A stretch of 64,000 nucleotides of DNA from Planctomycetota bacterium (GCA_038212275.1 JBBQUR010000009.1:128001-192000); one strand, 5' to 3'; positions 8,113 through 60,556 are shown, numbered from the stretch's first letter. Notes: generated from the letters alone by a model not told the origin. Made by a program: numbers and translations.

Positions 8113-9582
8113 TTGTTGAAGGATGCCCTCTCCCGCCTCTCGCGCCACACGGTGGTGTATGCGGTGGCGAGCCACGCATCGAAGCTGCTGTCCTTCCTCT
8201 TCATCCCGTTCTACACGACGTACCTCACGGAACGGGACTACGGCATCAAGGAGATGCTGTACACGATGCTCTCGGTGCTCGCCATCCTGGCGGGCTCCAA
8301 CATGGCCAGCGCCATGGCCCGCTTCTACTTCGAGAAGCAGGAGCCTGACTACCGGCGCATGGTCGTGTCGACGGCGCTCATCTCGGTGGCGGGTGCGTCG
8401 CTGCTCGTGGGCAGCCTCATTGCGCTGTTCGCGGCCCCGATCGGGCGGCTGCTCGGGGACGATTTCCCCGGCATGACGCGCCTGGTGCTCGTCGCTCTCG
8501 GCATCCTCGTGCTGCAGACGGTTCGCGAGATGTTCTTCCAGTACCTGCGCACGGAGAACCGCAGCACGCTGTTCACCGCGGTCTCGCTGGTCAAGCTCTG
8601 CATCGAGCTGGGCCTGATGATCTGGTTCGTGGCGGGGCTGCAGCTCGGCGTGCTCGGACTCCTCTACGCCATGCTCATCGGCGAGGCGCTCACGCTGATC
8701 TTCATGAGCTTCCTCGTGCTGCCGGTCATCGGGCTGCGCTTCTCTCCTGCGATTTTCCGCACCCTGGCGCTTTTCGTGCTGCCGCTCGTGCCGACAGGCC
8801 TGCTTCAGTTCTGGCTGCACTCCGGCGACCGCTTCATCCTGAAGGCCGCCACCGACAACACCCAGGTGGGCATCTACAGCCTCGCCTACAACTTCGGCTA
8901 CGTCCCCAACTACGCGTTGCTGACGCCGTTCATGATGGTCTGGTTTCCGTACGTCTTCTCGCTCGCGGACAACGAGAAGAGGCGGAGCATCATCGGCCGT
9001 ATCGCGCCGTACTTCATGTTCGCCATGACCGCCTGCTGCCTGTTCATGTCGCTTCTCGCGCGCGAGGCCGTCGTGCTCATGGCGCGCAAGCCCGGCTTCC
9101 ACGCGGCCTGGCCCGCGGTGCCCCTCATCTGCGCCGGCTACTGGTTCTGGAGTTTCTCCCAGCTGGTCCAGACCGGCTTCTACATCATGAAGCGGACGGA
9201 CATGCTGCCGGTGCTCACCGGCATCGCGGTGGCCGTCAACATCCTGCTGAATCTCGCGCTGATTCCCGAACTTGGATTCATGGGCGCCGCGTGGGCCACG
9301 ATGATCACCTTCGCGCTGCTCGTGATCATGGGCGTGCGCGCCGTGCGCCCGGTCTTCAAGGTGGCCTGGCCCTGGCGTCGGCTGCTCATGCCGGCGCTCT
9401 CGGCCACCGTCCTTTGCGTGGCCGGAGTGCTGGCGGACCTGACGCCCGGTCCGGCCAGCATCGGCATCAAGCTCGCGGCCTTTCTCGCATGGATGTTCTG
9501 GATGCTCGCGGGCGGCTTTCTCGAACGGGACGAACGTCACGCGATCGTGACGGCGCTGCGCAGCCTCAAGCGCAGACGCTAG
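8113..9582 (+). CDS. Wzx-like polysaccharide flippase (MOP superfamily)
   Basis: ~14 TM helices; PFYTTYLTERDYG, DRFIL...VGIYSLA, NILLNLALIPELGFMGAAWAT. Confidence 0.88.
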   Translation: MLKDALSRLSRHTVVYAVASHASKLLSFLFIPFYTTYLTERDYGIKEMLYTMLSVLAILAGSNMASAMARFYFEKQEPDYRRMVVSTALISVAGASLLVGSLIALFAAPIGRLLGDDFPGMTRLVLVALGILVLQTVREMFFQYLRTENRSTLFTAVSLVKLCIELGLMIWFVAGLQLGVLGLLYAMLIGEALTLIFMSFLVLPVIGLRFSPAIFRTLALFVLPLVPTGLLQFWLHSGDRFILKAATDNTQVGIYSLAYNFGYVPNYALLTPFMMVWFPYVFSLADNEKRRSIIGRIAPYFMFAMTACCLFMSLLAREAVVLMARKPGFHAAWPAVPLICAGYWFWSFSQLVQTGFYIMKRTDMLPVLTGIAVAVNILLNLALIPELGFMGAAWATMITFALLVIMGVRAVRPVFKVAWPWRRLLMPALSATVLCVAGVLADLTPGPASIGIKLAAFLAWMFWMLAGGFLERDERHAIVTALRSLKRRR

Positions 9583-9586
9583 CGCG

Positions 9587-11914
9587 TCACGGCGTGAGCG
9601 CCGAGAGCGCGTTGGTGGAGGCGAAGCCCTTCACGCCGGCCGGGTCCTGGACCCAGGCCTGGAAGAAGAACTGGAAGTTCGACGGCAGACCGACGGGCCA
9701 CGTGCCGTTGAGCGGCAGGCTTCCCGCGGGCGTGGTGGGCAGCGGGCCGATGAGCACGTTGACGTCCGGCACGAGGACGCCGCCCTTGAGATTGCCCGCC
9801 AGCACGCTGAACCCGGTGATCATCCACCAGTTGGCATTCTCCTTTGCGCTGCTGAGCGTGAGGTTCACGGGACTGCCGCCGGTGAGCGGGCCGCTGCCCG
9901 TGAGCACCGGGATGCCGTGCGTGCCGGCCAGTCCGTTGCCGAGGCTGGCAAAGGTGCCGGGCACGAGCGCGCGCAACTTTGCCAGGTCGCGCGAGTCGAG
10001 CACGCCGTTGCCGTCGGCGTCGGCCGTCTGGCGCCACGGCCAATTCGGCGAGATGAGGTCGACATCGGCCTTGCTGTTCATCGCGGTGACGAAGAGCGCG
10101 AGGTCGGCGGCGTCCGTGTCGAGGTCGCCGTCGAGGTCGCCGGTGGAGTCGAGCGCGGCGTGCGTCACGCTCTGGAATCCGGCCAGCGGCGGGCCCGCTG
10201 GCGTGACCACCTGCTGGCTGCCGTCGAACCAGCGGATCGCGAGCCAGTCGGCGCCGGTGGCGCTGCCCAGTCCGAAGTGCAGGCGGTAAGGCTCCTGGCC
10301 GAGGAAGCTGCTGCCGGCCTTGACCTCGCACATCTGCACGACGCCGGTCGTGCCGCCGGTGCGCAGAAAGACCCGCGTGCCGACGGTGTTGAGGCTGCCG
10401 CCCCTCTGCTTGAGGTCCAGCTGCAGCGAGGGCTTGCCGTTGTTGAGCGTGTTGAGGAAGAAGCCGGCCTTCAGGTTGGCGCCCATCGGCGGCATGACGT
10501 CCTGACTGCGCGTGTAGGCCACGTCGAGGTCGCCGTCGTTGTCGAAGTCGAAAGGCACCATCGAGCGTGCGGTGTCGAGCGTGCCGCCGACGCCGGAGTA
10601 CTGCGGGCAGAACGTATTGATGAGTTGCAGCTTCGTCGACTTGCCGTCGGAGGCGAGCTGCGGGAACAGATTGTTCCAGATGTAGTTGGGCGCCGTGGCG
10701 CTGCCGAGGCCGCGCGCGTTGATGAGCTCCTTGTCGCCATCGTTGTCGAGGTCCACGAAGGCGGCGCCCCAGCCGATGCCGGTCGTCACGTTGGTGTTGA
10801 TGCCCGTGACCGGGCCGATGTGCGTGAACTTCAGGCCCAATCCGCCGATCTTCAGGTCGCTGTCGTTGCGATAGAAGGCATCGACCTTGCTGGGAACGGC
10901 GGAGCCGAAGGTCGAGTTGGTGTGGTAGGTGTCGATGTCGCCGTCGTTGTCGTAGTCGGCGAAGGCGATGCCCATCTCGTTGCCCCAGAGCAGCGAGCCG
11001 GTCGCGTTGTAGTTCATGCCGACCGACGTGGCGATGTTCGGGCCGAAGGTGCCGTTGCCGTTGTTCAGGCGCAGTTCGTCCGCCGCGGTCTCCACGTTGA
11101 TGTGCAGATCAAGCTTTCCGTCGCGGTTGAAGTCGATGAAGCTTGGCATCCAGACCTCGCCGAAGGCGGCGCCGTCGAGGCCCGCTTCAATCGTCGCGTC
11201 CACCAGCAGACGCGGCGTGTAGTCGGGCTGGCCCATGTCCCGCGCCGGATTCGGCACGTTCTTCCAGAGTCGGAACTGGTCCCTGTCGTAGCCCAGCAGC
11301 AGGTTGTTCCTGTACCAGTAGGTGACGATGACATCGAGGAAGCCGTCGTTGTTGTAGTCGCCGACCGCCGCGCCGCCGGCCACGCCGATGACGGTGGTCT
11401 CGACGGTCGGCGCGAGCACGAAGCCGCCGCTGCTGGCCGTGATGTCGGTGAAGTGGTAGCTGCCCGCCGGGCCGTCATTCCGGTGCAGCGAGTACAGGTC
11501 GAGGTTGACCGTGAGCTCTCCCGGGTAGCCGCACGTGATCAGGTCGAGGTCGCCGTCGTTGTCGAAGTCGAAGAAGATCGAGTTGCCGCGGCGCTTGGAG
11601 GGTTCGTCGATTCCGAACAGCGCGGCCGACTCGGTGAACGTGCCGTTGCCGTTGTTGAGGTAGAACTCGTTGGCCTTGCCCTCCGTGCCGCAGATCAGCA
11701 TGTCCAGGAAGGTGTCGTTGTTCACGTCGGCGACGCTCACGCCGGCCGCCTCGGTCGTGATCGTTTCGACGGGCACGAACGTGAAGGCGACACCGGGATT
11801 CTGCGGGCCGGGCGCCGCATTGATCTCGACGAGGTCGAAGCCGACCTGGGCCAGCGCGAACGGGGCCGTCGCCAGGGTAATGAAGGTGGCACCGAGCACG
11901 TGGCGCTTCGACAT
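9587..11914 (-). CDS. secreted FG-GAP/CRTAC1-like (ASPIC-UnbV) protein with dockerin-like module and shared C-terminal domain
   Basis: signal peptide; repeated D-x-[DN]-N-D-G-D-x-D FG-GAP loops; UnbV-like GSSFLGQEPYRLHFGLG; paired dockerin loops GDLDGDLDTDAADL / ADADGNGVLDSRDL. Confidence 0.85.
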   Translation of the reverse strand: MSKRHVLGATFITLATAPFALAQVGFDLVEINAAPGPQNPGVAFTFVPVETITTEAAGVSVADVNNDTFLDMLICGTEGKANEFYLNNGNGTFTESAALFGIDEPSKRRGNSIFFDFDNDGDLDLITCGYPGELTVNLDLYSLHRNDGPAGSYHFTDITASSGGFVLAPTVETTVIGVAGGAAVGDYNNDGFLDVIVTYWYRNNLLLGYDRDQFRLWKNVPNPARDMGQPDYTPRLLVDATIEAGLDGAAFGEVWMPSFIDFNRDGKLDLHINVETAADELRLNNGNGTFGPNIATSVGMNYNATGSLLWGNEMGIAFADYDNDGDIDTYHTNSTFGSAVPSKVDAFYRNDSDLKIGGLGLKFTHIGPVTGINTNVTTGIGWGAAFVDLDNDGDKELINARGLGSATAPNYIWNNLFPQLASDGKSTKLQLINTFCPQYSGVGGTLDTARSMVPFDFDNDGDLDVAYTRSQDVMPPMGANLKAGFFLNTLNNGKPSLQLDLKQRGGSLNTVGTRVFLRTGGTTGVVQMCEVKAGSSFLGQEPYRLHFGLGSATGADWLAIRWFDGSQQVVTPAGPPLAGFQSVTHAALDSTGDLDGDLDTDAADLALFVTAMNSKADVDLISPNWPWRQTADADGNGVLDSRDLAKLRALVPGTFASLGNGLAGTHGIPVLTGSGPLTGGSPVNLTLSSAKENANWWMITGFSVLAGNLKGGVLVPDVNVLIGPLPTTPAGSLPLNGTWPVGLPSNFQFFFQAWVQDPAGVKGFASTNALSALTP

Positions 11915-12136: not shown

Positions 12137-14020
12137 TCAGCCCGGCTTGCCCAATGTCGCGGCGGTCACTACGGAAGGGGGCCGGTCGGCCTGCGTGGAG
12201 GGCACCAGGAAGGGGCCGATCGCGAGTGCGTCCAGCCGCCCCAGCCGGAAGGCGCGGAGGGCGTCCGCCGGCGAGCACACGATCGGCTCCTCGTGCATGT
12301 TGAAACTGGTGTTGATCAGGGTGGGGATGCCGGAGAGCTTCTCGTACTCGGCGAGAATCGCGTGGAAGCCGGGATTCACGTCGCGGCGCAGGAGCTGTGG
12401 CCGCGCGGTGCCGTCCACGTGCACGGCGGCCGGACAGTGCTCGGACATCCACGGCGTGCAGTCCGCCGTGATGGTCATGAACTCCGCGGCGTGGCGCATG
12501 CCGCCGAGGTCGCGGTAGCAGCGGTCGGCAGACTCCGCGAGCGTCACCGGCGCGAAGGGCATGAACTCGGTGCGTCCCAGCCGCTGGTTGAGCCACTGAT
12601 TCACCTCGGGCTGCCGCGCGTGGTAGAGCACCGAGCGGTTGCCGAGCGCGCGAGGCCCGTACTCCATGCGCCCGTCAAAGCGCGCAACGACCTCGCCTGC
12701 GTGAATGCGCCGCGCGACCTCGGCCGCCAGGTCCGCCGGCCGGCTGTACGGAACCTGCGCCTGCTGCAGCGCGGCGAGGATCTGCTCTTCGCTGAACTCC
12801 GGCCCGAGATAGACGTCGTGGAGGGGCGTGCCGACGTCGTGCAGAGGGCCCGCGGCGGCCCGTGAGTCGTGCAGCGCGAGGCCCGTGCCGCAACCGCCAT
12901 CGCCCATGTTGGGATAGATGAAGATGCTCTCCACGCCTTCGATCGCGTGCAGCCGCTGATTGAGCTTCACGTTCGCGGTCACGCCACCGGACAGCACGAG
13001 GTGCCCGCAGCCCGTCGCCGCGACCCAATGCCGCACCCAGTTCACTGCGACGACCTCGAGCACGTGCTGCCACGCCGCCGCGAGGTCGATCATCGCGTAG
13101 CGCGAAGCCAGGTGCCGCGAGAAGAAGATGTTGAGGTTCTGCGCGATGCGGAAGCTCTCTCCGGACTGCCGGATGCGCGCCAGCAGCAGTTCCGAGAGCA
13201 CGGCCGGGTCGCCGTATGCCGCGAGCCCCACGATCTTGCCCGCGTGGCGGTCCGGCTGGAAGCCGAGCGAGGACGTGACGGCCTCGTAGAAGGTCCCGAG
13301 CGAATGCGGAAAGGGCAGGCCGTGCAGGCGCGTGATCTGCCCGCCGTCGCCCAGCGAGATCGAGCCCGCCAGGCCGCTGCCGTAGCCATCGATGGTGACG
13401 ATGAGGGCGCGCGGCTGCCCGCTGGTGTAGTAGGCGTTGCAGGCGTGGGAGAAGTGGTGCTCGTGACGCCTGAGCTTGCCCGCCAGGCCCATCCGCTGCA
13501 GCCCCTGCTCCAGCTCGTTCTGCCAGTGCCGATGCCCCGCCACGGCGAGCTCGGCCCAGCGCTCGCTCATGCGTCGCGTCACCGCTTCGGAGAGAGCGGG
13601 CGTGACGCCGACCAGCCTGTAGAAGAGGCGCTTGGCCAGTCCCTTCGCCATGCGCTGCTCCGGCGTGGACAGCCCGGGCGGCGTTGCGCCGCGGGCTGGC
13701 ACGCGCGCGTCGGCGGCGGCGAGCAGGGCCGACAGGTCCGGCGTGACGAAGTCGGCCTGCTCGCGCCGCTCCGCGTCGAAGGCCGCGGCGATGAGTTCCG
13801 CCTCGCGCTCCGCATTGAAGAACGGGTACGAGACGACGTCCACCTGTTCGGGCGTCACGCCGGCGAAAGCGAACGCGGCCTCGATCGACTGTCGCGGAAA
13901 GCCGGCGTGCTGCTTGCGGCGCGAAAAGCGCTCCTCGCCCGCCGCGAACACGATGCGTCCGTCCTCGACGAGCGAGGCCGTGGCGTCCTTGTCGAGCGGC
14001 GAGATCCCGAGGACTCGCAT
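12137..14020 (-). CDS. carbamoyltransferase (NodU/CmcH/TobZ family)
   Basis: EERFSRRK, HHFSHA, IDGYG, SGGVTANVKLN, GDGG, EYGPRALGNRS, HVDGTARPQ, INTSFNMHEEPIV. Confidence 0.93.
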   Translation of the reverse strand: MRVLGISPLDKDATASLVEDGRIVFAAGEERFSRRKQHAGFPRQSIEAAFAFAGVTPEQVDVVSYPFFNAEREAELIAAAFDAERREQADFVTPDLSALLAAADARVPARGATPPGLSTPEQRMAKGLAKRLFYRLVGVTPALSEAVTRRMSERWAELAVAGHRHWQNELEQGLQRMGLAGKLRRHEHHFSHACNAYYTSGQPRALIVTIDGYGSGLAGSISLGDGGQITRLHGLPFPHSLGTFYEAVTSSLGFQPDRHAGKIVGLAAYGDPAVLSELLLARIRQSGESFRIAQNLNIFFSRHLASRYAMIDLAAAWQHVLEVVAVNWVRHWVAATGCGHLVLSGGVTANVKLNQRLHAIEGVESIFIYPNMGDGGCGTGLALHDSRAAAGPLHDVGTPLHDVYLGPEFSEEQILAALQQAQVPYSRPADLAAEVARRIHAGEVVARFDGRMEYGPRALGNRSVLYHARQPEVNQWLNQRLGRTEFMPFAPVTLAESADRCYRDLGGMRHAAEFMTITADCTPWMSEHCPAAVHVDGTARPQLLRRDVNPGFHAILAEYEKLSGIPTLINTSFNMHEEPIVCSPADALRAFRLGRLDALAIGPFLVPSTQADRPPSVVTAATLGKPG

Positions 14021-34668: not shown

Positions 34669-35721
34669 TCACGGCATGCCGAGCACGCCGTCGTCCTTCG
34701 TGCCGTTGTCGAAGTTGTTGTTCAACGTGTCGAGGGCCGTGCTGAGATCCGAGAGCGAGACGTCGCCGACGTTGTCGCCATCCACGTCGATCGGCGCCTT
34801 CAGCGCGCCTGAGATGGCCAGGTTGGAGAACTCGATCACCTCTCGCACGGAATGTCCCAGCAGCTTGGCGTGCACGCCTTGCGCGAAGACGAGGTCGCCG
34901 AGCTTGCAGAAGCTCTGGCACTTCTTGGAGTCGAAGACGCCGGCGTCGTCGAAGGCCACGTTGAGCATGGCCGAGGCGAGCTGTCCGGCGAAGACGCCGG
35001 CCGCCGTGCTCGTCACGTTGGTCATGTCCTCAGTGAACTTGCCGGGTGATCCGCCCGCGGGGAGAAACTTCTCCACCTTGCTGGACGTGGTCAGCAGCAG
35101 CGCGTAGTTCTTGTCATTGTCCGGGCCGTCCTTGTCACCAAGGATGAGGCCGCCGGGGAAGACGTCCTTGAAGTGGGCGTCGCGCAGACAGCCGGGATTG
35201 TTGCCGGCGCACTTGGTGCCCCAGCCGCCCTGGGTGTACGTCATGAAGGCGCCCGGCTTGACTTCGCAGGGATGATTGCAGGCGCCGTCGACGATCGTGA
35301 GCGAGGCGAGGTTCGAGAGGCCGAAGCTCTTCGGCTGGCCGTTCGACACGGCCACGAACTGCCAGTAGGCGACGATGCCGATGAGCGAGGCGTCGCACGG
35401 CATCTGGCGATCGCCGAGGCAGAGCACGCCGCTCTCCGGCATCGGCAGCGGGAAGATCGTGAGGAACGGCGGCGCAACGCCCAGATTGCCGGCGACGGTG
35501 TGCGTCGTGCCCTTGTGAAGCGACAGCACCACGAAGGCCGTCCAGTGGCCCGGCGGCGTCTGGAAGCACTCGCCGAACGGGGTCCCGATAGGAACCACCG
35601 GCGGAATGACGGTGATCTCGAAGCCCTGGTCGTGCGGGCAGTCCTGCGCGCGGAGTGTCGGGGCAAGCAGGCACGCGGCAATGGCCAGCGCCATGGGGAC
35701 TGCGAACAGTCTTCGTGACAT
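34669..35721 (-). CDS. secreted hypothetical protein, tandem paralogue B
   Basis: signal peptide; long identical blocks with paralogue A (e.g. PIDVDGDNVGDVSLSDLSTALD); alternative start 35766. Confidence 0.8.
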   Translation of the reverse strand: MSRRLFAVPMALAIAACLLAPTLRAQDCPHDQGFEITVIPPVVPIGTPFGECFQTPPGHWTAFVVLSLHKGTTHTVAGNLGVAPPFLTIFPLPMPESGVLCLGDRQMPCDASLIGIVAYWQFVAVSNGQPKSFGLSNLASLTIVDGACNHPCEVKPGAFMTYTQGGWGTKCAGNNPGCLRDAHFKDVFPGGLILGDKDGPDNDKNYALLLTTSSKVEKFLPAGGSPGKFTEDMTNVTSTAAGVFAGQLASAMLNVAFDDAGVFDSKKCQSFCKLGDLVFAQGVHAKLLGHSVREVIEFSNLAISGALKAPIDVDGDNVGDVSLSDLSTALDTLNNNFDNGTKDDGVLGMP

Positions 35722-35859
35722 GTGGAATGAATCCGAGCGAGGGCGAGGGAAGTTGTGCCCTGACATCGGCTCGAAGCAAATTGCGGCTCAAGGCATTCCG
35801 GCGACCGGCCGGCGACCGGCCGCCGCCGGGCAGGCGCCGGGCCGGCGCCGGGCCGGCGA

Positions 35860-44263: not shown

Positions 44264-46921
44264 ATGACTTCCCACGCCGATGCACGAGACGGACTCGCGC
44301 GAGCCCTGTTCTTCCGAACGGCCGTCACGTTCGCCGTCGCGGCCGCGCTGCTGCTGCCGGCGAGCACCGCCCGAGCGCAGGATGCGCCCGCGGACATCAA
44401 CTGGCCGCGCGTGTTCGAGAAGGATGGAAAGAAGTTCACGATCTTCCAGCCGCAGGTGGATTCGTGGAAGGATTACGAGGTGCTCCAGTTCCGCAGCGCC
44501 GTCTCCATCGAGGGCGTGCTGCCGGCGGTGACGTTCGGCGTGCTCGAGGCGCAGGCGAAGACTGTGGTCGACCACGCAACGCGGCAGGTCGCGCTCACTC
44601 CCGAGAAGCAGGAGCTGACGTTCCCCGGCGTGCCCGACGCGGATGTCGCCCTGCTGAAGGCGGCGGCCCTGGAGCTGCATCCCCCGGAGGCCGTGGTCGT
44701 CATCGCCCTCGACCGCGTGCTCGCGTACCTCGATCCCTCGGACGTGCCGCTCGAGCGCACGACCGAGGTCAACCTCGCTCCGCCGAAGATCTTCTACAGC
44801 GCGAGTCCGGCGATCCTTGTCAACATCATGGGCTTGCCGAAGTTCGTGCCCGTGGTGCCCGGCAATCGCGAGCTGTTCTTCGCGCTCAACACGAACTGGG
44901 ATCTGCTCCAGGACGTCGCCGGGAAGGGCTACTACCTGCGCGACGGAGACGGTTGGCTGACGACCAACGATGTGCTGAAGGGGCCGTGGACGCCGACGAA
45001 GGATCTGCCGGCGTCCTTCAAGTCGCTCCCGTCGGACGAGAACTGGGCCGAGACGCGCAAGCACATCCCGGGAACGCCGGCCGCGGCGGCTCCCGCGGTG
45101 TTCGTGTCCACGGCGCCGGCGGAACTGATCCTCACCGGGGGCGCGCCGGAGTTCACCCCGGTGCCGGAGACGGGACTGTCACGCCTCAGCAACACGGACA
45201 GCGTCGTGTTCCGCGAGGGAAGCGCCGGGGATTTCTTCCTGCTTGTCGCCGGGCGCTGGTTCCGCGCGGGCAAGCTCGATGGCCCGTGGGGTGCGGCCAG
45301 CAGCGACCTGCCCGCCGACTTCGCTCTGATCCCGGATGACGATGCGTCTGCTTTCGTCAGGGCGTCCGTGCCCGGCACGGACGAGGCCACCGAAGCGGTG
45401 CTGCTCGCATCCATCCCCAATACCACGGTGGTGAACCGGAGCGACCCTCCGGTGGCGGTGACCTGGGGCGGGAAGCCGCACTTCGCGCCGATCACCGGCA
45501 CGACGGTGCAGGCCGGCACGAACACAGCGTTCAGTGTTTTCCTCGTGGACGGCGCGTACTACTGCTGCGATCAGGGCGTGTGGTTCAACGCCGGCGCCGC
45601 GACCGGGCCGTGGCAACTCTGCAGCGAGGTCGCGAAGGCCATCTACACGATCCCGCCGACGAACCCGCACTACAACGTCACCTTCGTGACCGTCGTGGAG
45701 TCCACGCCAACCACGGTGACGTTCGCGCAGACGGCGGGGTACAGCGGCGAGTACGTCGCGTCGAACGGCGTGCTCGTCTTCGGCGCCGGCATGGACGCTT
45801 CCGAAGAGAGCGCGGACACGTCGACCGATGAGACGAGCGACGAGATGTCCGGTGATGAGTCGTACGAGGACGACTGCTACTACTATCCGGCGTACCCCTG
45901 CTACTACTCGTACGGCTGCGGCGCGCTGTACGACGATGCCTACGGCGGCTACTACGGCTCCGGCTACGACTACTACGGCCCCTACGGCGGCGCCGGATAC
46001 GCCGCGGCCTACAACCCGGCGACCGGCACGTACGGGCGCGCTTCGTATGCCTACGGTCCCTACGGCAGCGCTTCCGCGCGCGCGGCCTACAACCCGTACA
46101 CAGGCGGCTTCGCAACCGGCGCGCGGGTGAATGGTGTCAACGGCTCGGCCGCGAGAGCCGCCGGCTACAACCCGGCGACGGGTGCGTACGGCAGGGGCGC
46201 GTCGGCGACGGGCCGCTACGGCAGCGCAGGCTTCGCGCATGTCGGCAACGCCAACACCGGCAAGGCGGCGACCGGCCGCACCGCGTCCACCGCAAACGGC
46301 GACGCCGCCGCGGTGAAGACGAACCAGGGCACGGGCGCCGCTGCGTGGAACACGCAGAACAGCCAGGGGGCCGTCGCCAGGACGCCGTCCGGCGATCTCT
46401 ACGCCGGCACCGACGGCACCGTCTACAAGCGCGACGCTGACGGCAACTGGTCGAGCAACTCCGGCAGCGGCTGGGAGAGTGCCAACAAGCCGCAACCCAC
46501 CGAGGCCGGGGCGAGCGCAGCAACATCGACGGCTCCGAGGGCCGGAGCCACCGGAGCCACCGGAGCCACCGGAGCCACCGGAGCCACCGGAGCCACCGGA
46601 GCCACCGGAGCGGCCGGAGCGGCCGGAGCATCGGGGGCGGCAGGTGCTGGCGGCGCGGCGGACAGCAGGACTTCGGGCGCGCGAGCTTCCACCGCGGGGA
46701 GTCGCACTACGGTGGCTCAGGCCGGCGGGGCGCGCAGCTCGGGTGCGACGAAGTCCCGGAGCCGGAGCTCGAGCGACCTGGAATCCCAATTCAAGGCGCG
46801 CGACCAGGGCAACAGGAGCACCGAGCGCACGACGCAAAGCAGGTCGAGCGGAGGGTCGTCTCGCAGCCGATCCTCCGCAGGCGGCGGCCGCAGCGGCGGC
46901 GGCCGGGGCGGACGGCCGTGA
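44264..46921 (+). CDS. secreted Tyr/Gly-rich hypothetical protein (type often auto-annotated carbohydrate-binding V/XII)
   Basis: GGAGAGG RBS; signal peptide; WPR...FQPQVDSW, GRWF...GPW, repeated YNPxTG, Gly/Ser/Arg tail. Confidence 0.75.
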   Translation: MTSHADARDGLARALFFRTAVTFAVAAALLLPASTARAQDAPADINWPRVFEKDGKKFTIFQPQVDSWKDYEVLQFRSAVSIEGVLPAVTFGVLEAQAKTVVDHATRQVALTPEKQELTFPGVPDADVALLKAAALELHPPEAVVVIALDRVLAYLDPSDVPLERTTEVNLAPPKIFYSASPAILVNIMGLPKFVPVVPGNRELFFALNTNWDLLQDVAGKGYYLRDGDGWLTTNDVLKGPWTPTKDLPASFKSLPSDENWAETRKHIPGTPAAAAPAVFVSTAPAELILTGGAPEFTPVPETGLSRLSNTDSVVFREGSAGDFFLLVAGRWFRAGKLDGPWGAASSDLPADFALIPDDDASAFVRASVPGTDEATEAVLLASIPNTTVVNRSDPPVAVTWGGKPHFAPITGTTVQAGTNTAFSVFLVDGAYYCCDQGVWFNAGAATGPWQLCSEVAKAIYTIPPTNPHYNVTFVTVVESTPTTVTFAQTAGYSGEYVASNGVLVFGAGMDASEESADTSTDETSDEMSGDESYEDDCYYYPAYPCYYSYGCGALYDDAYGGYYGSGYDYYGPYGGAGYAAAYNPATGTYGRASYAYGPYGSASARAAYNPYTGGFATGARVNGVNGSAARAAGYNPATGAYGRGASATGRYGSAGFAHVGNANTGKAATGRTASTANGDAAAVKTNQGTGAAAWNTQNSQGAVARTPSGDLYAGTDGTVYKRDADGNWSSNSGSGWESANKPQPTEAGASAATSTAPRAGATGATGATGATGATGATGATGAAGAAGASGAAGAGGAADSRTSGARASTAGSRTTVAQAGGARSSGATKSRSRSSSDLESQFKARDQGNRSTERTTQSRSSGGSSRSRSSAGGGRSGGGRGGRP
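46544..46624 (+). repeat. in-frame 9-bp VNTR (GGAGCCACC x7 then GGAGCGGCC x2) encoding (GAT)7(GAA)2
   Basis: read directly. Confidence 0.95.
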
Positions 46922-46979
46922 ACACGGGCATGAACTTCGGCGCTCTTCGCGTGCGTTGGTGTGGCGCGTCGGCGGTCAC

Positions 46980-47530
46980 GATGCTTCGAATCCGGGTTTG
47001 ATCCGCAGCTCTCCGGATGAGGTGCCCCTTGATCGTGCACGTCGGCGGCAGGTCATCGGCATGCGGGTAGCGCTCCCGGAATCGCCGGCGGTCCTCGTCC
47101 GTGCCGCGAGTGGCCTGCACGAAGGCCCGCCGCAGCTCGAGGAACTCATCCTCGGCCTTCCGGTTCTGGGCATCCCAGCAGGCCGGGACGCGGGGTGTCA
47201 GGAGGATGATCACTGCAGCGTTGCTCTCGGTCGTCGACTCGCTGGACAAGACGTAGTCGAGGATCGGGATCGAGCTTTGGATCGGGACCCCGGACTGGGC
47301 AGTGCGACGATCCTTCTGGCTGAGCCCGCTCAGGATCGGGCTGCGGCCCAGCGCGATGACGGCCTGGCTGGAAACCGAACCCTCGTCGAAGATCACCGAG
47401 CCGTCTGACGACGATCCGGTGAGCACGTCGAGGATGCTCGCGCGGGACGCCTCGACCGACAAGTGGACGAGTGCGGTGCCCTCATCAGCCGACGTTCGCA
47501 GGAGCGTCGGCGTGACCTTTTCCACGCCCG
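46980..47530 (-). pseudogene. remnant of a secretin (type II/III secretion or Tad) C-terminal domain
   Basis: KVTPT...SQAVIALG..ILSGL...SGVPI..IPILDYV.S...VIILLTPR resembles the secretin core; no N-terminus; boundaries approximate. Confidence 0.55.
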
Positions 47531-47755
47531 CGAACACGACAACGAGCACGATCGCGAGCACGACCGCACGCCGGCCTTCAGCACGTGGAGTTTCGAGACG
47601 GACAGGCCGCTGTCGCTGGAGGCCGTGCGCGCTGTCGCCCGCAAGCTGCCGGGGAGCATTTATCGCTGCAAGGGCGTCCTGAACACGTCCGACACGCCGG
47701 CCCGGCGGACCGCGCTGCAGGTCGTCGGCCGACGCGTGGACACATCACTGCGGGA
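47523..47755 (+). pseudogene. remnant of a CobW C-terminal domain
   Basis: His/acidic linker EHDNEHDREHD then FSTWSFETDRPLS...IYRCKGV...LQVVGRR; no GTPase domain, no proper stop. Confidence 0.6.
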
Positions 47756-49452: not shown

Positions 49453-50088
49453 TCAGCCGCGCAGCGCGGCCTGCGCAGCGGTCAGGGCCGCCTCGCACGC
49501 GTCGGTGCCCCGCAGTTGAGGGAAGGGGATCGGCGCGGCGGGTTCGCGCGGCCGGTCGCCCAGGGTCAGCGCCCACCAGCCGACATCGTGCCAGGCGCCG
49601 AATTTGTGGCCGATGTGCTCGTAGTTGCCCAGCTTGCGGAACCCGAGCGACTCGTGCAGCGCGACGCTGGCGGGGTTGGGCAGCGTGATGCCCGCGTAGG
49701 CGTTCACGAAGCCCTGCTGAGCGAGCACGCTGAACAGCGCTCGATACAGCGCGCGAGCCACGCCGGTGCGACGCGCCGTCGCCGCGATGTAGGCCGAGAC
49801 CTCGACGCACCACTGATAGGCCGCGCGCTCGCGGTGCGAGGTTGCGTACACGTAGCCGAGCAGCACGCCGTCGCGTTCGCACACCAGCCACGGCCAACGC
49901 TCCAGGGTCGCGCTCACGCGGCGCGCCATGGTGTCCACGTCGGGCGGTTCGAACTCGAAGCTGATGACCGTGTCCCGCACGATCGGCGCGTAGATCTCCA
50001 GAATGCCCGCCGCGTCGGCGGGCGTGGCGATGCGCACGCCGATCCCGAGGCTGTCGCGCAGGGCGTTCGTCACCGTGGCCGGGCTCAT
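49453..50088 (-). CDS. GNAT N-acetyltransferase, phosphinothricin/arsinothricin (ArsN1-like) family
   Basis: IYAPIVRDTVISFEFEPP, HRERAAY, AGITLPNPASVALHE, KFGAWHDVGWW; ATGA overlap with the upstream stop. Confidence 0.85.
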   Translation of the reverse strand: MSPATVTNALRDSLGIGVRIATPADAAGILEIYAPIVRDTVISFEFEPPDVDTMARRVSATLERWPWLVCERDGVLLGYVYATSHRERAAYQWCVEVSAYIAATARRTGVARALYRALFSVLAQQGFVNAYAGITLPNPASVALHESLGFRKLGNYEHIGHKFGAWHDVGWWALTLGDRPREPAAPIPFPQLRGTDACEAALTAAQAALRG

Positions 50089-51437
50089 TCGATGTCGAGG
50101 CGCAGGCCGTTGGTCGCGGAGGCGCCCTTCACCGAGGTAGCGTCCGCGAACCAGCACTGCGTCACCAGCGAGAGCCCGGAGAGCGGGCCTGCAGGCAACG
50201 CGGAGGAGAGCACGAGCTTGCCCTGGCCGTCCGCCATGAGCGGCACAGTGAGCAGCACCGGCGACGGCGCGAAGAGACCACCCTTGAAGGGCAGGCTCGC
50301 CTCGCTGAGCGACGCGAAAAGCACGCCGGCCGCGTGTGGTGCGACGAGCTGCACGAAGTGCGTGAACGGCCCGCCGCCGGGCGACAGGTCTCCGGCGCCC
50401 GTGAGCTGCGGCACGCCGCCGAGGCCCGCGAGCCCGGAGCCCAGCAGCACGCAGGCGCCGGGCGGCGCATCGATGTCGATGGGGAAGGCGTTGGAGAGCG
50501 TCGCGCCGCTGGCGCCCGGCACCTTGACGAGCACGTCGCCCGCCTCGGCGCCCACGGGAATCACCACCGAGATCAGCGTGCCGCCCGCGGTGGAGGCCAC
50601 GCCGGTCAATTTGAGCGGCGTGCCGTCGCCGCCGGGATCGGTGAACCACACCTCGTTGCCGAGAGCCGCGAACTGGCTGCCGACAACGCTCAGCGTCCCG
50701 CCCGTGTCCAGCGCGCCGCCGAGCGAGGAGATCACCGGCTTGGCCGCGGAGGCCGCGCCGTAGATCGCCTTCAGTCCCGCGATGTCGTCCGCAGCGAGCG
50801 AGCGCGCCGAGGTGCCGTCACCGCTGATCGCTGGCGCCATCGTGGCGCCCGAGGTGCTGCTGTGCCCCAGCCCGAGCGCATGCCCGATCTCGTGTGTCGC
50901 CACGGCCTGCAGATCGAGCGCGCCCTCGTCGGGTGCACCGGGTCCGTCATCCCAGACGAAGTCGTCGTTGTAGACGATCTTCCAGCCGTCGCTGATCGGG
51001 CTCTGCGTGAACGCCGTCACGCCGCCGCCGAGCGAGGTCGCCGAGTGCACGTTGTCGTTGACGCCGCCCGCGGACGCGGCCAGGCCCTGCCAGGTGTTGT
51101 CGAAGTTGGCGCCGCCGCTGCCGAGCACCGGATTGCTGGCGAGCCCGTCGCCGAGACCGTTGCCGCCGCGCGGCAGGCTGCCCCATTCCGCGTGCGCCTT
51201 CCAGAGGGCGAGCGGCGCGCCGGTCACGCCAGGAAAGTTGCCGTGCGGGAAGGCGTTCTCGTTGGCCTGCACGTCGAGGAAGTTGTTGAAGACGCGGACG
51301 TCGCGCTGGTCGAGGCCAAGACTCTCACCGGAGGTGCTGAACGCGGTGCTGATCGTCGGCAGGCTCGTCAGTGCGGCCAGCGCCACGGCACCTGTCACGA
51401 GCACACCGGCGCAGACGCTCAGGGTGGATGTGGCCAT
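50085..51437 (-). CDS. secreted matrixin (M10A) metalloprotease with IPT/TIG-like and shared C-terminal domains
   Basis: HEIGHALGLGH zinc motif plus Met-turn ATMAP; AGGAG RBS; signal peptide. Confidence 0.88.
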   Translation of the reverse strand: MATSTLSVCAGVLVTGAVALAALTSLPTISTAFSTSGESLGLDQRDVRVFNNFLDVQANENAFPHGNFPGVTGAPLALWKAHAEWGSLPRGGNGLGDGLASNPVLGSGGANFDNTWQGLAASAGGVNDNVHSATSLGGGVTAFTQSPISDGWKIVYNDDFVWDDGPGAPDEGALDLQAVATHEIGHALGLGHSSTSGATMAPAISGDGTSARSLAADDIAGLKAIYGAASAAKPVISSLGGALDTGGTLSVVGSQFAALGNEVWFTDPGGDGTPLKLTGVASTAGGTLISVVIPVGAEAGDVLVKVPGASGATLSNAFPIDIDAPPGACVLLGSGLAGLGGVPQLTGAGDLSPGGGPFTHFVQLVAPHAAGVLFASLSEASLPFKGGLFAPSPVLLTVPLMADGQGKLVLSSALPAGPLSGLSLVTQCWFADATSVKGASATNGLRLDIE

Positions 51438-51606
51438 CGGACGGTCTCCTGGGAGAGTCGGGAAACGGCGTGAGGATCCCGGCTTGTCGTTGCGCCGCAC
51501 GCATCGGGCAGGGGGCCGGGCGGTCGGCGATCGGAGGCCGCCGTGTCGGCGCCCAGACTATGTCGGTCGGATGCGCGCCGCCAGTCGCCGCCGGCGCGGC
51601 GCGCGG

Positions 51607-56832: not shown

Positions 56833-57894
56833 TCAGAACTCGTAGCCGAGGATGAGGAAGATCTGCGCGTTGGGTGACTCGCCGCCGACGCCGACGAGCG
56901 GCGCGAAGTCGATGTGCGTGCGCTTGAACGGGCGGTACTGGAAGCTCGGGCCGATGAAGAACTCGTCGGTGAATTCGCTGCGGTCTTCCTCGGCATTGAT
57001 GCGCTGGGCCTTGAATTCGGCGCCCACCGAGAAGACCTCGTCGGTGATGGTCTTCGAGATGCCGTAGGTGAACTGCAGCTCGCGCTCCTGGTCGCCGGTG
57101 GTCTGTTGCTCGCACGAGAAGTTGGCGCTCCAGTGCCAGCTGGGCGCGAGCTGGTCGGCGAACAGCAGCTTGCCCTCCCAGGCGTCCGGCTCCGAATAAT
57201 TGTTGATCCACTCCAGGTAGGCGGTGGGATTGCCCCAGATCTTGCCCCAGTCCGCGAACGCATAGCGGAGCTCGATCTGCTGCCCGTTCATGTCGAAGGG
57301 CACCCAGTTGCCCTCGTTCTGCGCCTTCAGATAGAAGTCGAGCTGGAAGCGATGCGGCAGGCCGATCTCGACCTCGTACAGGTTGCGGATCTTCGTGTCG
57401 CCGTGCTTCGGGTCGTCGATGCGAGCCCAGTACTCGACGTCGATCTCGCCCTCGGGGATCACGTAGGTGCGCACCGTGGCGAAGCGGCGGCGCGTGGTCC
57501 AGCGCGGCTGCGCATACGGGCCGACGAGTTCTTCCTCGCGCAGCTCGGGCGGCATCTCGCCGACGATCTCGATGGCCGGCATTTCCCAGGAGCGCAGGTG
57601 CGGCTCATCGTCGGAGGGCGGACGGGTCGCGTCCTGCGGGGCCGGTTGCGGGGCGTTCTGCGGGGACACGTGCGGCTGCCAGGCGAGCAGTTCCGCCGCC
57701 AGCGCGGCAAAGGTCGAGGTCGTGGACGCGGCGTCCGCGCCGGCCGCCTCGGCGAAGGGGGCGGCAGGCGGTGCGGGCGGGTTGCCGAGCGTGTCGTGAG
57801 CATGGGCCACGTCCAGGGCGCCGAGCAGGCTGAAGGCGCAGGCCATGCCGAGTCGCCACATCGCGATCGCGCCGCCGAGGGCAGTCCGCCGCAT
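56833..57894 (-). CDS. putative small outer-membrane beta-barrel protein
   Basis: signal peptide ending AHA; amphipathic strands; C-terminal FLILGYEF; start uncertain. Confidence 0.7.
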   Translation of the reverse strand: MRRTALGGAIAMWRLGMACAFSLLGALDVAHAHDTLGNPPAPPAAPFAEAAGADAASTTSTFAALAAELLAWQPHVSPQNAPQPAPQDATRPPSDDEPHLRSWEMPAIEIVGEMPPELREEELVGPYAQPRWTTRRRFATVRTYVIPEGEIDVEYWARIDDPKHGDTKIRNLYEVEIGLPHRFQLDFYLKAQNEGNWVPFDMNGQQIELRYAFADWGKIWGNPTAYLEWINNYSEPDAWEGKLLFADQLAPSWHWSANFSCEQQTTGDQERELQFTYGISKTITDEVFSVGAEFKAQRINAEEDRSEFTDEFFIGPSFQYRPFKRTHIDFAPLVGVGGESPNAQIFLILGYEF

Positions 57895-58044
57895 CGATCG
57901 CCGCGAATGGTCGATGTGCGAGGCGGCGCGCGTGTGTGCGTGGTCGGGGAAGGTCCGGAGCATGGGCGGGGTCCGCAGTCGGGTGGAGGGTCGACAATCC
58001 GTGGTAAGAGCGCGGGATCGCCGGAATCGGTTCATGGCGAGGAG

Positions 58045-58092
58045 CGGGATCGGGATCGGGAGCGGGTTCGGGTTCGGGTTCGGGATCGGGAC
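58045..58092. repeat. 6-bp tandem repeat x8 (CGGGWN) in a divergent promoter region
   Basis: cgggat cgggat cgggag cgggtt x3 cgggat cgggac. Confidence 0.9.
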
Positions 58093-58136
58093 GCGCGGGC
58101 GTCCCATTGCGCCGGGCGGGCGCTAGGGTGTCGCCG

Positions 58137-58712
58137 ATGGATCGGGCCGACATCATCACGGGAGAGCGGCTCTGGGCGCAGTCCGCGCGGCTACGCCTGC
58201 TGCTCCGGCACCTGGCCGGCGCGGCGCTGCGCGACCGCGTCGAGCTGGACGATCTCGTGCAGGAGACTTTTCTGCGCGTGCTCGCTTCGCCGGGCGGCCT
58301 GCCTGAAGCACGTGCGGTCGAGGATGCCGAGTTGTGGCGCCTGCTGGTGCACGTCGCACGGCATGTCGTCGTGGATGTGGCGCGTGCGGCGCGCGCGGCC
58401 AAGCGCGGCGGCGCGCGGTCGCTGCGACGCGCCGACTGGTCGCTGGGTGGAGTGAGCGTGAGTCAGCTTGCGGCCGCGACGGCCGGGCCGGCGACACGGG
58501 CGGTCGGGCGCGAGACCGAGGCGCAGCTCGAACGCGCCTTCATGACGTTGTCCGCCGAGCATCGGCGCGTGCTCGGTTTGCGACAGTTGCAGGGCCTGTC
58601 GGCGGAGGAGGCCGGCGCGCGCATGGGCCGCAGCGCCACCGCGGTGCACTCGCTCTATCGGCGCGCACTGCTCGCGTGGGAACAGGCGCTGACCCATGGC
58701 GTGAGCGGGTGA
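58137..58712 (+). CDS. ECF sigma-70 family factor
   Basis: region 2 DDLVQETFLRV; region 4 HRRVLGLRQLQGLSAEEAGARMGRSATAVHSLYRRA. Confidence 0.85.
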   Translation: MDRADIITGERLWAQSARLRLLLRHLAGAALRDRVELDDLVQETFLRVLASPGGLPEARAVEDAELWRLLVHVARHVVVDVARAARAAKRGGARSLRRADWSLGGVSVSQLAAATAGPATRAVGRETEAQLERAFMTLSAEHRRVLGLRQLQGLSAEEAGARMGRSATAVHSLYRRALLAWEQALTHGVSG

Positions 58713-59455: not shown

Positions 59456-60556
59456 ATGTCATCGTTCCCCGTCCGTCCGCCCCGCCGATTCTCGCTGTCC
59501 CGCGTGCTGACAGCCGCCGTCGGCGTCGCCGCCTCGGCCGGTGTCTGCCTGGCCGCGGCCTCGCTGCTGCCGGCACTCGACCTGACGAGCTGGACGCAGT
59601 TCGATCCCGACAACGACTGGAACGTGTCCTTTCCCACGGCGACGAGCCTGCGCATGACCGAGCAGGTCACCAGCTCGTCGGTGCATCCGGGCTGGGTGGT
59701 GAGCGACTTCAACCTTGCGCCCGTCGTCACCGTCGAGTTCGACCTCGGCGTCACGGCCGGCACAAGCGATGACGATCTCATCGGCTTCGGCTTCTCGTGG
59801 CTCGACGGCAGTCACTCGTGGCTCATGGACTGGAAGAAGAACACCCAGACCTTCAACTGGGGCCAGCCAGTGCCCGTCAACGACGACGTCGCCGAGCAAG
59901 GCCTCAAGATCAAGCGGATCAACGGCTCCTATTCATGGGACGGCCTGTGGGGAGGCCAGGATGGTCTCGGTGTGAGCACCATCGCCGGCCCGGCGGGCGG
60001 AGCCTGGGTCGCGGGCACCGTCTATCACTTCGTGATGAACCTCTCTCCCGGCCACATCGTCGTCACGCGCAACGGCGTCGGGCTCTTCGATGTCGTCGAT
60101 CCCTCGTATCCGGGCGGCGTGGGCGCCATCGCCTGCTACGGCTTCAGCCAGGGCAACATCAACCTGTCGAACGTCTGCATCACTCCTGCACCGTGGTTCA
60201 AGCTTGGTCTCGGAAAGGTCGGCAGCGCCGGCGTCCCGCAACTCTCCGGCAACGGCACGCTGAGTGATGGCTCGCTCAACGAGATCGTGCTGACGAACGC
60301 CGCGCCGTCCGCGCCGGCGACGCTGATCTTCGGCCTGTCGGCGATCAACGCGCCGTTCAAGGGCGGCACGATGGTCCCGCAGCCCCTGCTCACGCTGGCG
60401 CTCGGAACCTCCGGCGCCGGCTCCCTGAATCTGCCGTTCACCTGGCCGGCAGGAGTGCCCGCGGGAGTCCCCATCTACTTCCAGTACTGGATCCAGGATG
60501 CGGGCGCGACGCACGGCCTGTCGGCCAGCAACGGATTGAAGGGCGTCTCGCAGTGA
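59456..60556 (+). CDS. secreted protein with thrombospondin C-terminal-like (L-lectin fold) domain and shared C-terminal domain
   Basis: signal peptide; DDDLIGFGF...WKK.TQ...GLKIK...DPSYPGG...FSQ. Confidence 0.75.
   Translation: MSSFPVRPPRRFSLSRVLTAAVGVAASAGVCLAAASLLPALDLTSWTQFDPDNDWNVSFPTATSLRMTEQVTSSSVHPGWVVSDFNLAPVVTVEFDLGVTAGTSDDDLIGFGFSWLDGSHSWLMDWKKNTQTFNWGQPVPVNDDVAEQGLKIKRINGSYSWDGLWGGQDGLGVSTIAGPAGGAWVAGTVYHFVMNLSPGHIVVTRNGVGLFDVVDPSYPGGVGAIACYGFSQGNINLSNVCITPAPWFKLGLGKVGSAGVPQLSGNGTLSDGSLNEIVLTNAAPSAPATLIFGLSAINAPFKGGTMVPQPLLTLALGTSGAGSLNLPFTWPAGVPAGVPIYFQYWIQDAGATHGLSASNGLKGVSQ

Follow-up and report, generated by a model that had tools for sequence, protein, structure and literature searches.

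Why do three proteins that otherwise differ end in the same domain? The question is raised by a 64,000-nucleotide stretch of a Planctomycetota genome (GCA_038212275.1, JBBQUR010000009.1:128001-192000; the window, with positions counted from its first nucleotide). A first-pass annotation had noticed that three secreted-type proteins encoded in the window, each with a different passenger region, finish in a shared domain of approximately 120 amino acids, and had proposed that this domain targets or anchors proteins for an uncharacterised export system. We found that the domain belongs to a family without a name in the resources that we searched and that the family is hugely expanded in one uncultured, high-GC order of Planctomycetota. 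We tentatively favor the view that it is a docking handle in the cell envelope.

Three different secreted-type proteins share a C-terminal domain

Protein A (775 aa; 9587-11914, minus strand) contains FG-GAP_3 repeats (Pfam, E 1.1e-30) and a UnbV_ASPIC region (3.6e-14). It also has a weak dockerin-like stretch at residues 592-648 (Dockerin_1, E 0.035, below the cut-off), which lies upstream of the shared tail. Protein B (471 aa as listed; 50085-51500, minus strand) is a matrixin-type metalloprotease (Peptidase_M10, 2.4e-15). From its open reading frame (ORF), an internal methionine 21 codons downstream may be the true start. Its catalytic region, and no other part, gave a weak match to the NCBIfam model for myxosortase-dependent metalloproteases (44 bits against a cut-off of 250). 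Protein C (366 aa; 59456-60556, plus strand) has a TSP_C/LamG-like passenger (TSP_C at residues 93-239, 2.3e-6, 28 bits against a cut-off of 25.6). Orthologues of protein C share its architecture, with 59-76% identity in the domain. Read by eye, all three proteins begin with a hydrophobic, signal-like segment.

The tails of the three proteins are clearly related. The last ~127 residues gave an alignment of 129 columns, 31 of them invariant, with 33-36% identity to the first row. Pairwise BLASTP of tail against tail gave E values far beyond chance (A/C, 5e-22; B/C, 1e-19; A/B, 8e-11). These comparisons confirm that three different secreted-type proteins carry the same C-terminal domain of ~120 aa. 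The alignment also reproduced the motifs first described (LGxGxxGxxGxPxLxGxGxL, KGG, P, GxLxL, PxG, QxWxxD and GxxxxN[GA]L), and from the leucine of N[GA]L to the stop there are exactly five residues in A, B and C, as had been noted. Envelopes from a hidden Markov model (HMM) placed the domain at 9593-9970 in A (minus strand, E 4.9e-60, ending TNALSALTP-stop), at 50088-50468 in B (minus strand, 5.3e-56, TNGLRLDIE-stop) and at 60176-60553 in C (plus strand, 9.6e-60, SNGLKGVSQ-stop), within a few codons of the boundaries given originally.

The window contains a fourth match, which is weak and partial (approximately 35311-35550, independent E value 4.9e-4, model positions 39-115). It is internal in a signal-like protein of 365 aa (34669-35787, minus strand) without a Pfam family.

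The domain occurs once in each of about 140 proteins of the genome

We searched the genome that contains the window, a 4.65-Mb assembly of 40 contigs with 70.1% GC that is 91% complete. A profile of the three tails found the domain at 125 places. An iterated HMM, run for three rounds over all stop-to-stop frames of at least 80 aa, found it in 139 ORFs. Very few copies would have spoken against the proposal of the annotation; they are many. Each of the 139 ORFs had exactly one significant copy (139 domains), never in tandem. The domain ended no more than 23 residues from the stop in 134 of the 139 and no more than 8 residues from it in 129; five copies were non-terminal.

Genes for domain proteins are approximately 3-4% of all genes. 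The gene call was crude (based on GC at third codon positions), and its total of 3,132 genes is too low. The 127 copies in this call were scattered (95 singletons, 13 pairs and 2 triplets).

The domain is an unnamed family with conserved ends and few charged residues

No family in Pfam (2025 copy) or NCBIfam (release 20) matched the three tails at E<=1; a characterised Pfam family would have spoken against the proposal of the annotation, and none was found. The nearest clusters in the ESM Atlas were unnamed Planctomycetota proteins. Full-text literature searches, judged by titles and the starts of abstracts, returned no description of the domain. The domain is a family without a name in Pfam, NCBIfam, the PDB, the ESM Atlas or the literature searched.

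Both ends of the domain are conserved. It starts with W[TS]DLGxGLAGxxGxPxLxGxG, and the passenger joins it directly, without low-complexity sequence or a long flexible linker. The 129 C-terminal copies in this genome have the consensus end SN[GA]L-[RKQ]-x-x-T-P-stop. The last residue is proline in 88 of these 129, and threonine is commonest at position -2 (46/129). The stop is 3 residues past the end of the model in 76 of the 139 copies. Among the 150 best representatives world-wide (see below), proline is last in 133 and TP in 98. The tails, ending in SN[GA]LxxxTP, have no hydrophobic helix, which bears out the claim that they lack the transmembrane segment and basic tail of PEP-CTERM signals.

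Approximately 30 positions are near-invariant, both among the ~140 paralogues and between families of the phylum. The alignment has conserved aromatic and polar residues, among them F62, K63, Q104, W106, D109 and N120. Charged residues are depleted, with a mean of 8.5 K+R+D+E per copy (about 7%). Compared with the passengers of the same genes, the domain has less aspartate (2.9% vs 7.7%), glutamate (1.0% vs 2.7%) and arginine (0.9% vs 3.5%), so that these residues are two- to four-fold rarer in the domain than in its own passengers. Leucine and proline are enriched.

The domain is predicted to be an Ig-like beta-sandwich

An AlphaFold2 model of the domain of protein C, made from an input alignment of 30 sequences, was confident (predicted local distance difference test 89.3, predicted TM-score 0.82) and all-beta, with 10-11 strands and no helix. 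Foldseek found 0 matches in the PDB at E<=0.001. The best match with VIA-align was LILRB4 (Z 8.3, root-mean-square deviation 2.5, 86 residues aligned), tied with PECAM-1 (Z 8.2) and with the MG domains of complement proteins (Z about 8), a level that is common for unrelated beta-sandwiches. The C-terminal region of PorU, from the type IX secretion system (T9SS), ranked 37 (Z 6.8, root-mean-square deviation 4.1, 98 aligned). As modeled, the fold class is clearly an Ig-like beta-sandwich; the structural matches are generic, and none is specific. A predicted complex of two copies of the domain scored 0.00 with a mark of 0.42, and we draw nothing from it about self-association.

Passengers are diverse and most proteins appear to be exported

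We looked at passengers in a sample of 29 domain proteins from this genome. Eleven had a Pfam family in the passenger and 18 had none; no family fell on any tail. The families in the 11 were DUF642/CBM_4_9, phytase-like, Kelch, sulfatase, DUF7901, FG-GAP_2, FG-GAP_3 (twice), Big_7 and SBBP. Passengers in relatives included TSP_C, Kelch, FG-GAP, M10, M14, M23, CotH, LTD, CHRD, GSDH, FGE-sulfatase and phosphoesterase, among others. In their source records these relatives are named only 'hypothetical' or after the passenger.

Export of the domain proteins is well indicated by their sequences. Most of the N-termini that we inspected by eye show a basic and then a hydrophobic stretch before an AxA-like site, and glutamine often comes next. 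This conclusion comes mainly from reading N-termini because the signal-peptide heuristics discriminated poorly, both a permissive one (115/139 domain proteins vs 322/600 controls) and a strict one (58/139 vs 369/2,078 controls). Two further ideas were rejected. Twelve lipobox-like matches might have indicated lipoproteins; by eye, most were a cysteine inside the hydrophobic region. The domain might also stand alone. Eleven of 12 short representatives look 5'-truncated, and only one (P0022) looks like a signal peptide plus the domain alone.

The family is restricted in lineage and most abundant in one order

We found the domain in 41 of 41 genomes of the order. Copy number differed among the families of the order (f1 to f5). 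It was mostly 56 to >108 per genome in f1 and f2 together (36 in genome G003 and 21 in genome G011, which is 58% complete), mostly 77 to >108 in f1 alone, 3-68 in f4 and 2-7 in f5. In this scoring 108 was the upper limit, and the top counts are to be read as at least 108. Of 301 evenly sampled Planctomycetota genomes, each at least 80% complete, 59 had a match at E<=1e-5.

World-wide, 7,655 cluster representatives matched at E<=1e-3 and 1,061 at E<=1e-30. In the 150 best of the 7,655, the domain always ended no more than 8 residues from the end of the protein, and it was a single stretch in 148. Relatives with names come almost entirely from metagenome-assembled genomes (MAGs) labeled Planctomycetota or uncultured Phycisphaerales. 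In the material sampled, the family is restricted in lineage, and it is hugely expanded in the one order. Five of 79 loci from other MAGs (L036, L057, L059, L085 and L092) are in bins labeled Gammaproteobacteria, Polyangiaceae or Pseudohongiellaceae. They carry typical copies of the domain and are probably mis-binned contigs.

Distant versions keep part of the signature. We fetched 12 loci from five distant genomes. Of the 12 significant ORF matches, 9 ended 1-6 residues before the stop, one was internal and two ended 19 residues before the stop. These versions retain [FL]xGG, QxWxxD and SN[GA]L. Several begin with YGxGCxG, several have a cysteine near the end, and the terminal proline is missing.

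Some copies are N-terminal or on a membrane enzyme

The annotation asked whether the domain is strictly C-terminal and counted frequent internal occurrence against its own reading. The domain is C-terminal in 134 of the 139 copies in this genome and in all 150 of the best representatives. The exceptions in this genome are the five non-terminal copies, which include a member of a conserved N-terminal group. In that group, the protein at C7:48390-49718 has a signal-like segment, then the domain (residues 44-161, independent E value 6.9e-39), a proline-rich linker and a metallo-beta-lactamase (MBL) part (Lactamase_B). The MBL part was found in 21 of the 41 relatives (f1, 13/15; f2, 7/11; f3-f5, 0/14) and is limited to the two domain-rich families f1 and f2. 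Twelve loci were fetched, and at 10 of them the domain preceded the MBL part in the same frame, with 58-73% identity. The same order was present at three further named MAG loci. Members of this orthologue group (C7:48390-49718; loci L153-L160 and L162) also have a Cys-Cys or Cys motif between the signal-like segment and the domain.

Other exceptions were of different kinds. A paralogue of protein C (C28:566-2227) continues for 174 residues beyond the domain. Two neighboring genes (C4:144058-147963 and 149834-155149, minus strand) encode giant signal-like proteins of 1,297 and 1,671 aa with Kelch, GSDH, TIG and malectin regions, and both have a divergent copy of the YGxGCxG type directly after the signal-like segment.

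One copy is on a membrane enzyme. The protein at C20:72814-75138 (plus strand) is a PMT_2 membrane protein, a glycosyltransferase of the GT-C class, with at least 8 hydrophobic segments and the domain at its C-terminus. A full-length orthologue in genome G010 is 43% identical. The full-length fusion is present in at least 2 of the 41 genomes, a floor that comes from a stricter first look. The neighbors of the fusion gene encode a Rieske oxygenase, an SPFH protein and a lipoate ligase, with no glycan cluster.

The N-terminal architecture of the MBL proteins and the copy on an inner-membrane GT-C enzyme speak against a secretion signal that acts only at the C-terminus. The PMT_2 fusion cannot be outer-membrane cargo because it is an inner-membrane protein. 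From these sequences we propose that the domain needs no free C-terminus and that its fold is recognized rather than a linear signal at the C-terminus.

Searches for machinery, partners and neighbors

We searched this genome for components of known systems. There was no match to Por_Secre_tail (PF18962) at E<=0.01, with a control that rang only below the cut-off, and none to SprA_N (PF14349), for which the control gave nothing anywhere, so that this is not proof of absence. The PorV and PorU models (NF033710 and NF033707) gave no match, and no control genome passed their cut-offs. SlipAM (PF04575, Slam) gave 0 matches with a control that was silent everywhere. Cohesin (PF00963) gave 0 matches; its control rang in three genomes, over the cut-off in one.

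Secretins were considered as candidate machinery and rejected. The genome has 8 genes with a secretin domain, and across the 41 relatives the number of secretins does not track domain abundance: f5 genomes have 7-9 secretins with 2-7 copies of the domain, and f1 genomes have 5-8 secretins with mostly 77 to >108 copies. Secretin genes are not adjacent to domain genes except for one short ORF in the window (46791-47744, minus strand; 317-aa frame; PF00263, 7.3e-12), three genes from the gene for protein B. A related observation was made just upstream of the window, at C9:127431-127922. The lack of a correlation with secretins, the terminal-proline signature, the charge depletion and the conserved domain-MBL architecture appear to be new features.

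Other candidates for a translocon or scaffold were also rejected. Fourteen giant proteins included nonribosomal peptide synthetases (NRPSs), GH94, UvrA-like, DUF748 and Rhs proteins, kinase-sigma54 activators and proteins with CarboxypepD_reg repeats; three of the 14 had no Pfam match, and their composition was not barrel-like. A search for a scaffoldin through internal repeats gave as top matches NRPSs, a UvrA-like protein and beta-propellers that themselves bear the domain.

We screened genes no more than two genes away from domain genes in this genome and found no envelope machinery. Only families of extracytoplasmic function (ECF) sigma factors and Ser/Thr kinases and one other paralogous family were enriched. 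Members within two genes of a domain gene were 5 of 8 for the ECF-sigma-like family (251-aa representative) and 6 of 15 for the kinase family, against a background of 13%; both families were named by eye. Because these families are enriched beside domain genes, the results suggest that sets of domain proteins are under the control of extracytoplasmic signals. In the 79-locus screen of other MAGs, the largest apparent neighbor family was rejected as an alternative-frame shadow of the domain itself (62 ORFs at 49 loci). Long spurious ORFs overlap real genes in this 70%-GC DNA, both in the whole genome and at these loci (L031-L109). The next family was present at 7 loci and looked sulfatase-like by eye.

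Three neighborhoods in the window are of note. An ECF sigma factor gene (58107-58712, plus strand; Sigma70_ECF, 1.5e-11) lies just upstream of the gene for protein C. Its product is a possible regulator of protein C, by association only, and may or may not belong to the enriched ECF-sigma-like family. Divergent from it is an ORF of 424 aa (56833-58107, minus strand) that ends in FLILGYEF like an outer-membrane beta-barrel and has only a sub-threshold match, to Phenol_MetA_deg. On either side of the gene for protein A are genes for a Polysacc_synt (Wzx-like) flippase (8113-9582, plus strand) and a carbamoyltransferase (12137-14020, minus strand), which make this a polysaccharide-modification neighborhood.

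What the domain may do

To our knowledge, protein placement in the unusual envelope of Planctomycetota is largely unexplored. The idea that the domain targets or anchors proteins remains the best reading of the results. That it does so for an uncharacterised export system has become one of two live options.

We favor, at somewhat less than an even chance, the option in which the domain is a common handle for docking or retention in the cell envelope. A domain protein would cross the inner membrane by Sec, as the signal-like N-termini indicate, with probable cleavage of the signal peptide, and the terminal domain would fold in the periplasm. One shared envelope partner (a glycan, peptidoglycan, the outer membrane or a receptor protein) would then bind its conserved, almost uncharged surface. 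Binding would keep ~140 unrelated enzymes and beta-propeller binders at one site in the envelope or at the surface, non-covalently, much as dockerins and S-layer homology (SLH) domains do. The handle would be recognized as a fold and not as a linear C-terminal peptide, which would explain how the domain can work both behind the signal peptide of the MBL proteins and at the C-terminus of a membrane glycosyltransferase. Judging from other GT-C enzymes, the C-terminus of the PMT_2 fusion would be periplasmic.

Several results are consistent with a docking handle. The domain is present in single copies in 139 ORFs with unrelated passengers, its fold is predicted with confidence, its position can vary, one copy is fused to a GT-C enzyme, and its motifs persist in the phylum. 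The depletion of charge fits a large docking surface. A number of points weigh on the other side. There is no candidate partner; we found no cohesin, recurrent non-regulatory neighbor or repeat-rich scaffold. Sorting signals, more than binding modules, typically have so strict a terminal placement, a single copy and a conserved last residue (proline in 88/129 and 133/150), and the lack of a long flexible linker before the domain is unlike many anchor modules. Copies at the N-terminus or on a membrane enzyme are rare (5 of 139 copies are non-terminal, and the GT-C fusion is known from at least 2 of 41 genomes).

The other live option, a serious one that we nevertheless doubt, is an export tag comparable to the C-terminal domain (CTD) of T9SS cargo. 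Once exported by Sec, the protein would meet a putative outer-membrane translocon of Planctomycetota that recognizes the domain and moves the passenger to the surface or the medium, and the tag would be cut or used for attachment. The layout is like that of T9SS cargo, with one Ig-like sandwich at the C-terminus of each of ~100 or more unrelated proteins per genome that have signal-like N-termini. The exact end is conserved, in the position of the stop, the final proline and the final TP. The passenger runs into the domain without a long linker, and several passengers (matrixin, TSP_C, FG-GAP/ASPIC and CotH) are of extracellular type. Against such a tag, the conserved N-terminal placement on MBL proteins and the copy on a polytopic inner-membrane GT-C enzyme do not fit, and the number of secretins does not follow the abundance of the domain. 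The terminal proline is confined to this clade, and distant versions end otherwise. The searches for a T9SS tail, SprA_N, PorV, PorU and Slam had weak or silent controls, and their negative outcome does not prove absence. If the option were right, which we consider possible but not probable, the domain would mark the cargo of a Planctomycetota-specific route to or across the outer membrane, a counterpart of the T9SS with different machinery that serves ~3-4% of the proteome.

It is improbable that the domain is a substrate-targeting or adhesion module whose ligand is external (a polysaccharide or the surface of another cell, for example), in the manner of a carbohydrate-binding module (CBM) or lectin. 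A beta-sandwich with conserved aromatic and polar positions would suit such a role, as would the variable position. The GT-C fusion recalls glycosyltransferases with a carbohydrate-binding C-terminal domain (EmbC), and protein A is encoded between a flippase gene and a carbamoyltransferase gene. However, no CBM or lectin family matched at E<=1, and, unlike CBMs and adhesin Ig domains, which are often repeated, the domain is never in tandem. Its placement is far stricter than that of typical CBMs, and one ligand is hard to square with proteases, sulfatases, phosphatase-like enzymes and many passengers of no known family.

We consider it very unlikely that the domain is a partnerless cap for folding or stability (an intramolecular chaperone or a protease-resistant end whose proline guards against carboxypeptidases or tail-specific proteases): the terminal proline, the compact, well-predicted fold and the loose precedent of pre-peptidase C-terminal domains in other bacteria are in its favor, but a cap would not need ~30 near-invariant positions across ~140 paralogues and the families of the phylum, would be of no use at the N-terminus of MBL enzymes, and would be oddly poor in charge for an aid to solubility or stability.

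The identity of the partner would reveal either a new route of surface display or secretion in the Planctomycetes-Verrucomicrobia-Chlamydiae (PVC) group or a new pair of envelope polymer and anchor. For these MAG lineages it would also help to predict where hundreds of uncharacterised enzymes and binders are located. A Pfam or NCBIfam model of the family is warranted.

Comparison with known systems

The T9SS CTD of Bacteroidota (type A, PF18962/TIGR04183) resembles the domain in being a small Ig-like beta-sandwich, present once per protein at the very C-terminus. Like the domain, it is carried by unrelated passengers on Sec-type proteins, tens to hundreds per genome, encoded at scattered loci. 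T9SS CTDs are roughly 80-100 aa with 7 strands. In contrast, the domain described here is ~120 aa with 10-11 predicted strands, has no sequence match to the T9SS CTD, comes from a different phylum, is N-terminal in one orthologue group and is present on an inner-membrane enzyme. The CTD region of PorU was only a mid-list structural match, and SprA, PorV and PorU gave no match in the 91% complete genome, with controls that were weak or silent.

PEP-CTERM-type tags are about 20-35 residues long and combine a motif with a transmembrane helix and a basic tail. Two papers (PMC1569441, PMC3237569) deal with short C-terminal sorting signals that have their own sortases. The domain family is like the PEP-CTERM/exosortase, GlyGly-CTERM/rhombosortase, MYXO-CTERM and LPXTG systems in joining varied cargo to a fixed tail, in being lineage-restricted and in its high copy number. 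It is unlike them in being a globular domain without a terminal hydrophobic helix, and it matched no NCBIfam sorting-signal model at E<=1.

SLH domains and the C-terminal CBM of mycobacterial EmbC are folded modules, of a kind that fastens many different proteins non-covalently to a polymer of the cell envelope; EmbC is a GT-C enzyme with the module at its periplasmic end. The PMT_2 fusion is likewise a GT-C enzyme with a C-terminal folded module. The domain has no sequence similarity or specific structural similarity to the SLH domain or the EmbC CBM, and the organism is diderm.

Dockerins, found on cellulosomal enzymes, are folded docking handles that bind cohesins, each a single small module that is mostly but not invariably C-terminal and is carried by dozens to hundreds of unrelated secreted enzymes. 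A dockerin is a roughly 70-aa, calcium-binding, helical duplicated repeat. The domain is instead a predicted 120-aa beta-sandwich, the shared tail has no Dockerin_1 match, and the genome has no cohesin match. In its use as a single module on many unrelated exported proteins, the domain is like Dockerin_1 (PF00404) modules, and docking of this kind is the mode of action that we favor.

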